Assembly (NCBI RefSeq): GCF_003018255.1
Contig: NZ_CP027440.1
Direction: 5' to 3' (one strand)
Source of the DNA: Escherichia coli
Lineage (GTDB): Bacteria; Pseudomonadota; Gammaproteobacteria; Enterobacterales; Enterobacteriaceae
DNA length: 64,000 bases
The position numbers were made by a program, and so were the translations under genes. Below, one piece after another: positions 47,521 to 52,759 of the stretch. Within the stretch, counting starts at the first letter, position 1. Each line of letters starts with the position of its first letter. Below the pieces are notes generated by a model that did not search any database, had not been told where the DNA came from, and saw only the letters and a list, made by a program, of their open reading frames with translations.

Positions 47521-48765
<1,245 letters not shown>

Positions 48766-48821
48766 TGGATTTGGGCGGAGCAGTGACTCCGCCTTTAATA
48801 TGTCACAAAAAGGATAAAACG

Positions 48822-49541
48822 ATGGCTACTCCACACATTAATGCAGAAATGGGCGATTTTGCTGACGTAGTTTTGATGCCAGGCGACCCGCTGCGTGCGA
48901 AGTATATTGCTGAAACTTTCCTTGAAGATGCCCGTGAAGTGAACAACGTTCGCGGTATGCTGGGCTTCACCGGTACTTATAAAGGCCGCAAAATTTCCGT
49001 AATGGGTCACGGTATGGGTATCCCGTCCTGCTCCATCTACACCAAAGAACTGATCACCGATTTCGGCGTGAAGAAAATTATCCGCGTAGGTTCCTGTGGT
49101 GCTGTTCTGCCGCACGTAAAACTGCGTGACGTCGTTATCGGTATGGGTGCCTGCACCGATTCCAAAGTTAACCGCATCCGTTTTAAAGACCATGACTTTG
49201 CCGCTATCGCTGACTTCGACATGGTGCGTAACGCGGTAGACGCGGCAAAAGCACTGGGCGTTGATGCTCGCGTTGGTAACCTGTTCTCCGCTGACCTGTT
49301 CTACTCTCCGGACGGCGAAATGTTCGACGTGATGGAAAAATACGGCATCCTCGGCGTGGAAATGGAAGCGGCTGGTATCTACGGCGTCGCTGCAGAATTT
49401 GGCGCGAAAGCCCTGACCATCTGCACCGTGTCTGACCACATCCGCACTCACGAGCAGACCACTGCCGCTGAGCGTCAGACCACCTTCAACGACATGATCA
49501 AAATCGCGCTGGAATCCGTTCTGCTGGGCGATAAAGAGTAA
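48822..49541 (+). CDS. deoD: Purine nucleoside phosphorylase DeoD-type
   Basis: [33 protein letters not shown]... 239 aa from ATG at 48822. Confidence 0.95.
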
Positions 49542-49573
49542 TTGTGTTTTGCTGAAAGGCGATTGTCGTGTGA

Positions 49574-49603
49574 AGCCGGAGTGGGAGACTGCTCCGGCTT
49601 TTT
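49574..49603 (+). terminator. Rho-independent terminator of the deo operon
   Basis: 8-bp stem AGCCGGAG/CTCCGGCT with 10-nt loop, followed by TTTTT. Confidence 0.7.
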
Positions 49604-49701
49604 AGTATTTATTCATCAATAGCAACTGATTTATAGATTTACTATTATTTTTCATATGGATAGAAAATAAAATCCATTCAAGTATCTATTCACGAATCTA
49701 T

Positions 49702-49965
49702 TCATTTATGTTCAGCCGTCATCCAGGAAGGGCATATCAGCAACTCTGGTGGACAACCATAAATTCCTGCCATTTTGCTTTTGATGTTTGAACTAAGCCG
49801 TTCCGTCTTTTCGATCTGTTTTAGAGAATTAATGGAGATACCTAACATTTTACTTACTTCAGCAAGTGATAGTTTATGCCTGATACGCACGGCGGTTAGC
49901 CAGGATATACCCTGGCTGAACATTAAATTGATAATCTCCCGTTCCTGGTTTTCCAGATCGATCAT
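49702..49965 (-). CDS. Small XRE-type helix-turn-helix protein (87 aa), hypothetical
   Basis: ATG at 49963-49965 preceded by GGAAGGA; HTH-like segment KLSLAEVSKMLGISINSLKQIEKTER; AT-rich DNA; lies where K-12 has yjjJ. Confidence 0.5.
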   Translation of the reverse strand: MIDLENQEREIINLMFSQGISWLTAVRIRHKLSLAEVSKMLGISINSLKQIEKTERLSSNIKSKMAGIYGCPPELLICPSWMTAEHK

Positions 49966-49996
49966 ATTTCCTTCCCTGGATATTTTAATCAGCGAG

Positions 49997-51013
49997 TTAC
50001 CTTACCGCCCCTGCCATCCACGCTGACAACTCCCGTAGCTCTTTTTCCTGTTCCGGGAAGTCAACCAGCAGCGCTTCGCACTCCTGTTGCAGCATATCCG
50101 CGCGGTACAGACAGCCTTGCAGTCGCCCGGCGAGGGCTTCCAGCGGCGCGGGGTTGAGACTGTCGGTAAACACCTGGGCGCGGGTGATATGGCCTTTTTC
50201 AACGTCGAAATGCAGTTCCACGCCGCCCCAGGTAAAGCGTTCATCCAGCAGATGCGAGAATGCCGGAGCCTGACCGAAGTTCCATTCCCAGCTACTCTGG
50301 CGGGCAAAGGTTTCGGCGAAGTTTGGCAAGTCTGGCGTTTTGTCCGGGGAGATGATTTCCGCTTCCACGCGCTCGCCATAATGGGCGAAAAAGGCCTCGG
50401 TTATGGCCTCGCAAACCTGCTCATGGGTGATCCCCGGTAGCAATTCGGTCAGATTGGTCACGCGGGAACGCACTGAGGTAATGCCTTTCGCCGCCAGTTT
50501 CTTTTTATCCGGATTGAGATAGTTTGCCAGGCGGCTAAGGTCGGAATTGAGCAGCAAAGTGCCGTGGTGGAAGCCACGATCTTTGGTTTCGCGATAGGCC
50601 GAGCCTGAGACTTTGCGATCGCCTTCGGCGGTTTTCACCACCAGATCGTTACGCCCGGAAGCTTCGGCGCTGACGCCGAGCGCGTTCAGCGCATTGAGCA
50701 CAATCGACGTGGAGATGGTTTTATCGTACTCCGGCTTGCCAGCCATAAAGGTAAAACAGGTATTGCCGAGATCGTGGAACACTGCGCCGCCACCGCTACT
50801 GCGCCGCGCCAGGCGGACGTTATCTTCTTCCATCCGCCGGGTATTACACTCTTTCCACGGGTTCTGCGCGCGACCAATCACTACCGTGTCGGCATTGCGC
50901 CAGAGAAACAGAACGCGCTGCGTAGCCGGCATCTGGCGAAAAATACACTCCTCTACCGCCAGGTTAAACCACGGGTCGTAAGAGTCAGAGATGAGCAGGC
51001 GTAATGTGGACAT
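49997..51013 (-). CDS. lplA: Lipoate-protein ligase A
   Basis: [57 protein letters not shown]... 338 aa. Confidence 0.95.
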
Positions 51014-51040
51014 AACGATTTCCTTTCTTGTAGTAATGGG

Positions 51041-51685
51041 TCACTCTTTTTTCTCGCTTTCTTCCTCTTCCGGCACCGGTTTACTGGCGGTTAACAGGAA
51101 GGGCGATTGCTGCCAGCGGGTGCGTTTACCCTGTAGCAGCGTGCGGGTCAGCACTACGCCGATTGCCAGTGAGAGCAGCAACATCAGGCGTAAAATGTTA
51201 GTGGTGTTATCCACCTGTTGGGCTTCGGTGGCGAGCGTATGGGTGTCGAGCGTAAGGCGCAGATAGCCGAGCGGTCCGTTTTTCCCGGCAATAGGTTCGA
51301 CAATCTGCTGGTTAAAATAGCCGCCCGCTTTTTTGCCGTCGAGCGCCAACCGGTCGCGCACTTCGACGCTTTCGCCAGAACGGGCGATAAGATCGCCTTG
51401 TTCGTCATACACGCCCGCGTCGAGGATACGGCCTTCATCCGTTAACTGATCAAGGATCGCCTGAATGCGTTTTTCATCCGGTGAGTCGGTACGCATCAGC
51501 GGTGCAACGTTCAGCGTCACCTGACGCGCCAGGGTGCGGGCCAGTTCTTCCAGCTGTGGATTACGCTGTCGCTGGTGGTTTTGACTAAACCATGACGCTC
51601 CCTGCATCAGCGCCACTAACAAGGCAAGACAGAACAGGACAATCACTGCCCGATGCAGCCGGAATTTCAGTTTTGTGCGAGCCAT
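51041..51685 (-). CDS. ytjB: Inner membrane protein YtjB (Smp)
   Basis: 214 aa with N-terminal TM helix; conserved position between lplA and serB. Confidence 0.85.
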   Translation of the reverse strand: MARTKLKFRLHRAVIVLFCLALLVALMQGASWFSQNHQRQRNPQLEELARTLARQVTLNVAPLMRTDSPDEKRIQAILDQLTDEGRILDAGVYDEQGDLIARSGESVEVRDRLALDGKKAGGYFNQQIVEPIAGKNGPLGYLRLTLDTHTLATEAQQVDNTTNILRLMLLLSLAIGVVLTRTLLQGKRTRWQQSPFLLTASKPVPEEEESEKKE

Positions 51686-51790
51686 CTTCCACCCTTTGAA
51701 AATTTGAGACTTAATGTTGCCAGAAGCAATGGATACAAGGTAGCCTCATGCGTTATTTTCCCTGCTTCGAACGATTTTACAGGAGCCTTA

Positions 51791-52759
51791 ATGCCTAACA
51801 TTACCTGGTGCGACCTGCCTGAAGATGTCTCTTTATGGCCGGGTCTGCCTCTTTCATTAAGTGGTGATGAAGTGATGCCACTGGATTACCACGCAGGTCG
51901 TAGCGGCTGGCTGCTGTATGGTCGTGGACTGGATAAACAACGTCTGACCCAATACCAGAGCAAACTGGGCGCGGCGATGGTGATTGTTGCCGCCTGGTGC
52001 GTGGAAGATTATCAGGTGATTCGTCTGGCAGGTTCACTCACCGCGCGGGCTACGCGCCTGGCCCACGAAGCGCAGCTGGATGTCGCGCCGCTGGGGAAAA
52101 TCCCGCACCTGCGCACGCCGGGTTTGCTGGTGATGGACATGGATTCCACCGCCATCCAGATTGAATGTATTGATGAAATTGCCAAACTGGCCGGAACGGG
52201 CGAGAGGGTGGCGGAGGTAACCGAACGGGCGATGCGCGGCGAACTCGATTTTACCGCCAGCCTGCGCAGCCGCGTGGCGACGCTGAAAGGCGCTGACGCC
52301 AATATTCTGCAACAGGTGCGTGAAAATCTGCCGCTGATGCCAGGCTTAACGCAGCTGGTACTCAAGCTGGAAACGCTGGGCTGGAAAGTGGCGATTGCCT
52401 CCGGCGGCTTTACTTTCTTTGCTGAATACCTGCGCGACAAGCTGCGCCTGACAGCAGTGGTAGCCAATGAACTGGAGATCATGGACGGTAAATTTACCGG
52501 CAATGTGATCGGCGACATCGTTGACGCGCAATATAAAGCGAAAACCCTGACCCGCCTCGCGCAGGAGTATGAAATCCCGCTGGCGCAGACCGTGGCGATT
52601 GGCGATGGAGCCAATGACCTGCCGATGATCAAAGCGGCAGGGCTGGGGATTGCCTACCATGCCAAGCCAAAAGTGAATGAAAAGACGGAAGTCACCATCC
52701 GTCACGCTGACCTGATGGGGGTATTCTGCATCCTCTCTGGCAGCCTGAATCAGAAGTAA
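51791..52759 (+). CDS. serB: Phosphoserine phosphatase
   Basis: MPNITWCDLPEDVSLWPGLPLSLSGDEVMPLDYHAGRSGWLLYGRGLDKQ...; HAD motif DMDST; AGGAG Shine-Dalgarno. Confidence 0.95.
   Translation: MPNITWCDLPEDVSLWPGLPLSLSGDEVMPLDYHAGRSGWLLYGRGLDKQRLTQYQSKLGAAMVIVAAWCVEDYQVIRLAGSLTARATRLAHEAQLDVAPLGKIPHLRTPGLLVMDMDSTAIQIECIDEIAKLAGTGERVAEVTERAMRGELDFTASLRSRVATLKGADANILQQVRENLPLMPGLTQLVLKLETLGWKVAIASGGFTFFAEYLRDKLRLTAVVANELEIMDGKFTGNVIGDIVDAQYKAKTLTRLAQEYEIPLAQTVAIGDGANDLPMIKAAGLGIAYHAKPKVNEKTEVTIRHADLMGVFCILSGSLNQK

Follow-up and report, generated by a model that had tools for sequence, protein, structure and literature searches.

HipH is a HipA-family Ser/Thr kinase toxin with an N-terminal helix-turn-helix (HTH) domain (Gerdes et al. 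2021, PMC8262856). Published work on HipH states that this HTH 'may function to bind DNA' and places c-di-GMP control 'at the promoter region' (PMC8262856, PMC11452175). In E. coli K-12 MG1655, hipH (yjjJ) is a 1332 bp gene on the plus strand that occupies the interval between deoD and lplA, with the hipH stop codon abutting the lplA stop codon. Orphan antitoxins form a second relevant group, as they are abundant in E. coli and an anti-addiction role has been proposed for them generally (PMC10790755). Here we compare these systems with the deoD-lplA site in the window, the whole 64,000-nucleotide stretch of E. coli DNA (contig NZ_CP027440.1) that was analysed.

The first-pass annotation of the window had reported that yjjJ was missing from a deoD-lplA gap of only 455 bp, and both points held. 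The gap spans 49542-49996, between the end of deoD at 49541 and the lplA stop codon at 49997-49999, and it contains a single substantial ORF in the ORF list and no HipA_C kinase coding sequence (Table 1). Alignment to K-12, which had been proposed as a way to define the end points, showed by blastn that window positions 48001-49710 match through the hipH ATG and that positions 49998-52000 match from lplA on, which puts the left junction at the retained start codon and makes the third base of the lplA stop codon the right one. The 287 bp between these junctions (49711-49997) take the place of the 1330 bp that run from codon 2 of hipH to its stop in K-12. The gene was to be dismissed as an ordinary intergenic relic if K-12 had the same sequence here, but no K-12 similarity to this segment was found at the DNA or protein level by blastn, BLASTP or alignments. 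When read on the minus strand, the retained hipH ATG encodes His86 of the HTH ORF. At the right junction, lplA ends in TAA in all ten sampled genomes with the HTH allele and in TAG in all five with hipH. The gap region is AT-rich as first described, with a GC content of 0.32-0.41 versus 0.54-0.62 in the flanking genes, and a non-coding RNA search of the gap gave zero matches to Rfam families at E <= 1.

Table 1. Features of the deoD-lplA site and its flanks, in window coordinates.
Feature	Position	Strand	Basis
deoD (purine nucleoside phosphorylase), left flank of the variable site	48822-49541	+	ORF list; RefSeq annotation of the identical locus L002
deoD intrinsic terminator hairpin, common to both haplotypes	49572-49601	+	terminator scan, inverted repeat, alignment
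Distal motif copy ATTTATTCA, one mismatch to ATCTATTCA	49607-49615	+	motif scan, alignment
Haplotype-specific segment between distal and proximal motif copies, site of the core promoter where hipH is present	49616-49671	+	alignments, ~50% identity to K-12
Three tandem motif copies, 12-bp period: ATCCATTCA, ATCTATTCA, ATCTATTCA	49672-49704	+	motif scan, alignment
87-aa XRE-type HTH protein gene, intact in the window, RefSeq WP_000566145.1	49702-49965	-	ORF list, RefSeq, Pfam, PHROG, dN/dS, model
Retained hipH start codon ATG, the left junction	49708-49710	+	blastn end points, alignment
AT-rich replacement segment, 287 bp, without K-12 counterpart	49711-49997		blastn, alignment, GC
Spacer, 31 nt, lplA stop to HTH start	49966-49996	-	promoter and terminator scan
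Shine-Dalgarno GGAAGGA, 3 nt before the HTH ATG	49969-49975	-	direct sequence reading
lplA (lipoate-protein ligase A), right flank, probable upstream cistron	49997-51013	-	ORF list, RefSeq annotation

We lean towards reading this site as a derived allele in which hipH was replaced by foreign DNA coding for a solitary antitoxin-like XRE protein, which is dispensable and lies beside an orphaned hipH array; we rate this explanation as slightly better than an even bet. The ancestral arrangement would have had deoD and hipH facing a converging lplA, and in the Escherichia lineage hipH codon 2 to stop would have been swapped for 287 bp of AT-rich foreign DNA with an ORF on the opposite strand. The 87-aa product would be a solitary, toxin-less homologue of the C-terminal DNA-binding half of ~120-aa antitoxins, with a fold predicted to consist of a five-helix XRE domain and one extra N-terminal helix. 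Its translation would start at a Shine-Dalgarno of its own, on a read-through ytjB-lplA mRNA in which its gene is the final cistron, and its intact form may serve as a small stand-alone repressor. The ATCTATTCA copies would represent the orphaned regulatory array of the lost hipH, separate from the new gene.

Both alleles are common in E. coli. The HTH allele, scored in any genome with at least 80% of the 455 bp gap sequence, was present in 4036 of 5426 complete E. coli genomes (~74%), and hipH was present in 1348 of 5426 (~25%). These counts come from two separate lists, together account for 99% of the genomes, and fit mutual exclusivity of the alleles; among the loci inspected there were zero cases of hipH and the HTH gene together at the site. 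Strains with the HTH allele include O157:H7, BL21, O104:H4, O111 and C122, and the RefSeq protein is WP_000566145.1 in the window and WP_000566150.1 in O157 and BL21. Strains with hipH include K-12, NGF1 and APEC O1:K1:H7, and UPEC16, the strain given a hipH deletion in PMC11452175, is evidently a carrier too. The left junction is identical in all sampled HTH-allele carriers, including Escherichia sp. E1V33 and the divergent 'E. coli' GTDB species representative. The HTH protein is also present in E. marmotae and Shigella, and a scan of GTDB species representatives found the gene in two Escherichia genomes only. Thus, the proposal of an alternative cassette at a variable site was well supported in the form of a dimorphism, ~74% HTH versus ~25% hipH, with identical junctions in the sampled carriers. 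Apart from this dimorphism, TB354 has IS200C inserted in its hipH leader, WB61 has an independent internal deletion of hipH, and hipH is frameshifted in E302.

HipH orthologues with 49-70% identity are found across Enterobacterales. The order deoA-deoB-deoD-hipH-(lplA)-ytjB-serB-radA is present in Salmonella enterica, Citrobacter freundii and one more enterobacterium, and the same deoA-to-radA order with hipH also occurs in Cedecea and Kosakonia as well as in Erwinia tasmaniensis, which has no lplA there. Because deoD-hipH synteny is kept across these genera, hipH is the ancestral state and the HTH allele the derived one. Neither deoD distances nor lplA sequences group by haplotype, and since the flanks do not cluster by allele, recombination has uncoupled them from the polymorphism. 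A haplotype-linked divergence tract in lplA would have pointed to an imported donor segment or to homology-facilitated illegitimate recombination, but none was found: the haplotypes have a single fixed difference in lplA, at the third base of its stop codon. Both haplotypes are hyper-polymorphic over the final ~40 nt of the gene.

One locus outside Escherichia complicates this picture. A homologue of the HTH protein, P0081, is encoded by 87 intact codons on a short contig (L006), flanked by lplA and the 3' end of deoD and oriented as in E. coli. The lplA of this contig has only ~80% DNA identity to E. coli, Citrobacter and Salmonella alike, and this equal distance from all three genera places L006 in a separate genus-level lineage; a protein search with its LplA fragment returned nothing above 90% identity. 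In all other genera examined, the equivalent site is occupied by hipH. A short form at the same site in a lineage with ~80% identical lplA is hard to reconcile with a simple single replacement inside Escherichia. It also bears on a different reading, in which hipH and the HTH gene exclude one another as functionally linked alleles, with the protein acting on the ATCTATTCA array or on HipH-controlled targets. If this were true, acquiring the HTH gene would permit loss of the HipH toxin kinase, and the two alleles would form a long-lived polymorphism across genus boundaries, as suggested by the ~40-44% identical homologue at the same site; we regard such a link as very unlikely.

The 87-codon minus-strand ORF with a GGAAGGA Shine-Dalgarno was found as first described. 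It had been said to end 32 nt upstream of lplA, which was incorrect, as the ORF lies downstream of lplA on the same strand with its ATG 31 nt past the lplA stop. An in-frame stop 12 codons before the ATG rules out a longer ORF. The call of an XRE HTH agreed with the profile searches: the peptide includes LSLAEVSKMLGISINSLKQIEKTER, and Pfam matches were HTH_3 (PF01381) at 2.5e-5 over residues 25-76 and Sigma70_r4 at 1.7e-5, with PF01381 precomputed for most homologues. An NCBIfam scan gave only sub-threshold generic HTH and sigma-factor matches, a PADLOC scan gave only HTH_VI at 1e-5, and a sequence search of the PDB gave only a marginal match to CylR2 (E 0.5). The structure of the protein was then modeled with AlphaFold2 from a 16-sequence alignment (mean pLDDT 88.9). 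The model predicts an XRE core at residues 22-76, with helices at 22-29, 34-41, 45-54, 59-69 and 73-76, plus an extra N-terminal helix at residues 4-18 and a short C-terminal helix, and Foldseek matched it to CylR2, C.BclI, SinR, P22 c2, DdrO and 434 Cro. The HTH_3 profile match and the predicted five-helix fold together assign the protein to the XRE/Cro-C1 class. We also asked about membership in the HipB/HipH-type HTH group, and neither a sequence relationship nor a neighbouring Hip kinase was found.

A consensus scan of the interval between lplA and the HTH ORF found no terminator and no credible sigma-70 promoter, its single match overlapping the start codon. The lack of either element in the spacer suggests co-transcription with lplA. 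This arrangement raises the alternative that the protein is a dedicated regulator of lipoate metabolism or of the ytjB-lplA operon, expressed as its last cistron, since it is encoded on the same strand as lplA at 31-nt spacing with no terminator found between, and since the adjacency of lplA and the HTH gene is repeated in the outgroup contig. However, K-12, Salmonella, Citrobacter and others have a working lplA with hipH next to it and no HTH gene, and nonsense alleles of the HTH gene are common. The adjacency in Escherichia can be attributed to the replacement event itself, and we consider a dedicated lplA regulator highly unlikely. No candidate operator for the HTH protein was found in the region, as the single notable palindrome (49898-49917) falls inside the ORF.

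Homology searches, another step that the first-pass annotation had proposed, recovered relatives in Escherichia, Shigella, L006, phages and plasmids. A word-indexed search found close homologues in Escherichia and Shigella only, and an exhaustive search added P0081 as the sole comparable short form, plus weak matches to larger proteins. The distant relatives, with 23-37% identity (29-37% for tblastn matches), are ~120-aa 'transcriptional regulators' of phages and plasmids, with long forms carried by Pasteurella phage Pmp14, Enterobacteria phage PPyecE_EH1910 and plasmids of Leclercia, Serratia, Ewingella and Xenorhabdus. The HTH protein matches PHROG 7241 with an E value of 2.1e-9 over profile positions 54-121 of 122 (the C-terminal 68 positions), and full-length ~120-aa homologues match this profile end to end. 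In five of six annotated phage or plasmid contexts, the gene for the long form directly follows a gene for an ~86-aa toxin that matches PHROG 1213 'RelE-like toxin' and Pfam ParE_toxin. A scan of IMG/VR, queried with an alignment of the long forms only, found an ORF matching a toxin profile on the same strand in 78 of 80 loci, ending 31-202 nt upstream (median 72 nt). Taken together, these comparisons show that the HTH protein and the antitoxins share a homologous DNA-binding domain.

No toxin gene or toxin remnant was found beside the HTH gene, which has lplA and the spacer upstream and the hipH leader relic and deoD downstream. The protein begins at residue ~45-50 of the long forms, so that the N-terminal ~45 aa of the toxin-paired proteins, presumed to be the partner-binding part, is missing. 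Because both the adjacent toxin and this N-terminal region are missing, the gene should not be filed as a toxin-antitoxin system. A neighbour-joining tree built on the shared domain joined the two chromosomal 87-aa forms, both long-branched, into a sister group of the mobile forms that is not nested among them, whereas a toxin-less 88-aa truncated form on phage contig L072 is nested among the long forms and is a precedent for the short solo architecture. Given this sister position, derivation from an antitoxin by truncation would be only one possible direction. The suggestion that the ORF is a relic of a toxin-antitoxin or phage regulatory module thus draws its support from homology to PHROG 7241 only.

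This homology to the DNA-binding domain of antitoxins on enterobacterial phages and plasmids, and the anti-addiction role proposed for E. coli orphan antitoxins in general (PMC10790755), would be consistent with an immunity factor that represses or interferes with incoming phage or plasmid ParE/RelE-HTH modules. Several features make this reading unlikely. Identity to the mobile antitoxins is only 23-37%, toxin neutralisation is not expected because the antitoxin-specific N-terminal part is missing, and frequent nonsense alleles argue against strong selection.

Pairwise Nei-Gojobori comparisons with the window allele within Escherichia gave dN/dS of 0.15-0.37, based on only 3-12 changes per class, and comparison with the 87-codon homologue P0081, at ~40-44% amino acid identity depending on method, gave 0.28. 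Exact 48-mer matches in genomes were used to count alleles of codon 50, which lies inside the recognition helix: a stop (CAG->TAG, Q50 stop) occurs in 1692 genomes and the CAG version in 2181, meaning that ~42% of HTH-allele carriers have a nonsense allele. The stop allele differs by only 2 nt from an intact allele, indicating that inactivation was recent and a single event. RefSeq also annotates frameshift and internal-stop pseudogenes of the gene, and there are many truncated protein clusters. With ~42% nonsense carriers and 25% of E. coli without the gene, the HTH gene is dispensable.

These decayed alleles raise the possibility that the gene is a neutral, functionless leftover of an old insertion that survives for lack of erosion time. 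The Q50 stop in 1692 of ~4036 carriers, the frameshift and internal-stop alleles with their many truncated clusters, the lack of the gene in 25% of E. coli and in other genera, and the failure of a consensus scan to find a promoter of its own all fit such a relic. In contrast, every comparison gave a dN/dS below 1 (0.15-0.37), a genus-level outgroup has an intact ORF of the same length with ~40-44% identity at dN/dS 0.28, the fold is predicted confidently, and the Q50 stop, only 2 nt from an intact allele, points to one recent event rather than long decay. We therefore view the neutral relic as a possible but doubtful account. In the interpretation with most support, the gene is weakly constrained and foreign in origin, the latter in view of its GC content of 0.32-0.41 versus ~0.57 in the flanks.

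The first-pass annotation had also noted a short direct repeat just beyond the 3' end of the ORF. Two exact copies of ATCTATTCA were indeed found (49684-49692 and 49696-49704), but the repeat is not a two-copy element: the second overlaps the stop codon of the HTH ORF, and both belong to a four-copy hipH array together with one-mismatch copies at 49672-49680 (ATCCATTCA) and 49607-49615 (ATTTATTCA). Across the whole window, ATCTATTCA with up to one mismatch had 14 matches versus 12.2 expected, showing no enrichment; what makes the motif significant is that four copies cluster within 98 bp and that they are conserved across genera. The array layout is found upstream of hipH in seven lineages, namely K-12, Salmonella, Citrobacter, Cedecea, Kosakonia, Erwinia and one more enterobacterium (L023). 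In these seven, the distal copy is exact and precedes the first tandem position by 64-66 bp (65 bp in the window); the tandem part has three positions at a 12-bp period, of which the first is degenerate in Citrobacter and L023, and its last copy ends 0-6 nt before the hipH ATG. The hipH lineages show no conservation between the distal and proximal copies, and the intervening sequence contains a promoter with TTGACA-N18-TTAAAT in Salmonella and TAAATT in place of TTAAAT in L023. Comparing the two E. coli alleles showed near identical proximal copies and only ~50% identity over the ~56 bp between distal and proximal copies. The window thus has the hipH-type leader of one distal and three proximal copies before an ATG, with a mismatch in two of the four copies. 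This conservation suggests that the ATCTATTCA array is probably the hipH operator, and HipH's own N-terminal HTH would plausibly be its binder.

In HTH-allele genomes the array is eroding. A 12-bp unit was lost in 3 of 10 sampled genomes, a 77-bp deletion between copies was present in one, and most had point changes, while four perfect copies were present in all four assessable hipH genomes; the fifth, TB354, was unreadable owing to IS200C. Because the array is eroding in the former and perfect in the latter, it appears to be a relic of the lost hipH in HTH-allele genomes.

An array and ATG kept right beside the new gene could instead mean that the HTH protein has taken over in the hipH circuit, binding the ATCTATTCA copies to silence an orphaned hipH promoter that would otherwise be antisense to the HTH gene and lplA. 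The near identity of the proximal copies between haplotypes, despite ~50% identity across the ~56 bp between copies, is compatible with such a successor. However, XRE dimers typically bind palindromes, and direct repeats with a 12-bp period are untypical of their binding sites. The array is eroding where the HTH gene is present and perfect in 4 of 4 assessable hipH genomes, and the outgroup contig L006 carries the HTH gene without a ATCTATTCA array. The HTH of HipH is also unrelated to the new protein, with no BLASTP match and an hhalign probability of 13% over 28 generic HTH columns. Succession in the hipH circuit is quite unlikely on this evidence. An inverted remnant of the HipH HTH was rejected as the source of the gene on the same protein comparisons and on the lack of DNA similarity by blastn at word size 7.

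Returning to the favored reading of a replaced hipH, the HTH gene is a common, already annotated accessory allele that codes for an ordinary orphan antitoxin-like regulator present in thousands of RefSeq genomes. RefSeq already annotates it as a 'helix-turn-helix domain-containing protein'. It represents a widespread polymorphism in gene content rather than a new system, and a search of the literature on the HTH protein accessions, the deoD-lplA site and the 9-mer motif found nothing relevant. Beyond the first-pass annotation, whose cautious interpretation was largely right, the analysis added that hipH is ancestral, that its leader and ATG survive, that the repeat belongs to the hipH array, and that ~42% of carriers have a nonsense codon. 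The distribution of alleles means that HipH studies of persistence, c-di-GMP and genotoxicity that used K-12 and some UPEC strains are not transferable to ~75% of the complete E. coli examined, as O157:H7, BL21, O104:H4 and O111 are without hipH and have a different small regulator in its place. The conserved operator-like array of hipH is a more useful lead than the HTH gene, because the four ATCTATTCA copies on either side of the hipH promoter hardly vary from Erwinia to Escherichia and offer a testable candidate operator for regulation of the 'antitoxin-less' HipH.

Among known systems, the K-12 hipH locus shares its chromosomal site with the window and has the same leader with ATCTATTCA array and ATG, but in the window the hipH coding sequence is gone and the new gene on the other strand encodes an HTH of another class, unrelated in sequence. 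The PHROG 7241 antitoxins, including Pmp14 gp33, PPyecE_EH1910 gp290 and Leclercia plasmid pZ96-1_2 WP_225988006, have an XRE-type HTH homologous to the window protein, with the common pattern A-x-R ... IEK ... Y-x-C ... L. In known modules they are partnered with PHROG 1213 / Pfam PF05016 ParE-RelE toxins on mobile elements, whereas the window protein, 87 aa long and extended at its C-terminus by 'CPSWMTAEHK', is encoded at a fixed chromosomal site. Among solved structures, CylR2 (2xiu/1utx), the SinR N-domain (3zkc), P22 c2 (3jxb) and 434 Cro (2cro) superimpose on the model with rmsd 1.5-2.1 A over 53-60 residues at Foldseek probability 1.0. Small XRE repressors, including C.BclI (2b5a), have 16-30% identity to the window protein at E 0.02-0.1, and the predicted protein differs from the solved repressors in its extra N-terminal helix (4-18) and short C-terminal helix. 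Finally, the orphan antitoxins of E. coli (PMC10790755) are likewise antitoxin-like, without cognate toxin and widespread across sequence types; the deoD-lplA locus does not appear in the main text of that study, and its protein differs from that class in that the N-terminal part of its toxin-paired homologues is missing as well.

In the K-12 locus and in the hipH loci of other enterobacteria, the hipH promoter is flanked on both sides by copies of the 9-mer ATCTATTCA in a 1+3 layout. One exact distal copy lies 64-66 bp ahead of the first position of a proximal array, which consists of three tandem positions with a period of 12 bp, and the hipH ATG follows the end of the last copy by 0-6 nt. 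From Erwinia to Escherichia this array is almost unchanged; the intervening sequence is not conserved. The array is likely an autoregulatory operator of HipH, and a literature search found no description of it.

The array was also found in the window, where the HTH gene occupies the hipH site. Between its distal and proximal copies lies an allele-specific segment: E. coli with the HTH allele and E. coli with hipH are ~50% identical there, while the ATCTATTCA copies flanking this segment are near identical across alleles. Genomes with the HTH allele differ in their number of ATCTATTCA copies (L011, L007, L008 and L012): one 12-bp unit is missing in E1V33, SCPM-O-B-8794 and VTB96959v, and THO-010 (L011) carries a 77-bp deletion between the distal copy and the last one. 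This variation is consistent with slippage or recombination among the copies once hipH was lost.

Features at the deoD-lplA site and at loci of HTH relatives
Feature	Location	Remark
ATCTATTCA array	window 49607-49704; L001 2169-2266	also upstream of hipH in L025, L026, L023, L030, L031, L032
Allele-specific segment	window 49616-49671; L001 2178-2233	
ATCTATTCA copies in THO-010	L011 1439-1521	
ORF MFSRHPGRAYQQLWWTTINSCHFAFDV	window 49708-49788 (+)	26 codons
Codon 50, CAG to TAG in the nonsense allele	window 49818-49820; L015 1661-1924	HTH ORF
Palindrome AGCCAGGATA/TACCCTGGCT	window 49898-49917	HTH ORF codons 17-23
Polymorphic lplA 3' end	window 49997-50040	
Damaged hipH	L009 6206-6664; L010 2501-2692; L018 3167-4497	
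REP/BIME-like units	L023 2856-3340	enterobacterium, deoD-hipH interval
HTH homologue, 87 aa	L006 864-1127	Logan contig DRR526040_81833
Solo HTH, 88 aa	L072 1507-1773	N-terminally truncated
HTH, 124 aa	L046 1492-1866	full-length form

Within E. coli, hipH has been damaged repeatedly: its leader is interrupted by IS200C in TB354, an internal deletion has cut it to 140 bp in WB61, E302 carries a frameshift, and the database also holds several truncated HipH protein clusters. In another enterobacterium (L023), four or more tandem REP/BIME-like units, each ~89 bp long, lie in the deoD-hipH interval together with an additional 163-aa ORF that had no Pfam matches. These units and the extra ORF show the interval to be a general hotspot for insertions. 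On the other side of the site, polymorphism is unusually high over the final ~40 nt of lplA, whichever allele is present: differences per site reach 0.17-0.20 within the last 17 nt compared to 0.02-0.06 elsewhere, and the variation includes A/T and M/I amino acid changes in the C-terminal peptide.

The HTH gene itself exists in a nonsense form. Of the 5426 complete E. coli genomes, 1692 carry the TAG-50 allele as an exact 48-mer, O104:H4 2009EL-2050 among them. Since it is just 2 nt apart from the intact TO73 allele, this suggests a single recent origin in a clade that is now very abundant. Two other small features were observed in this region. On the strand opposite the HTH gene, ORF MFSRHPGRAYQQLWWTTINSCHFAFDV starts at the kept hipH ATG and is probably meaningless; should the orphaned promoter of hipH still be active, this ORF would be translated. 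The near-perfect 20-bp palindrome AGCCAGGATA/TACCCTGGCT within the HTH ORF may be due to chance.

An HTH homologue in an outgroup contig (L006), with about 40-44% identity to the window protein, likewise sits between the deoD 3' end and lplA. The lplA of this contig has ~80% DNA identity to those of E. coli, Citrobacter and Salmonella, and no higher to any of them. Among viral relatives of the HTH protein, the ParE/RelE-like toxin is absent at 2 of 80 loci, both from IMG/VR: the solo HTH of L072 follows a long ORF and has other ORFs of the phage on its far side, and the HTH gene of L046 is preceded by a DNA methylase gene.
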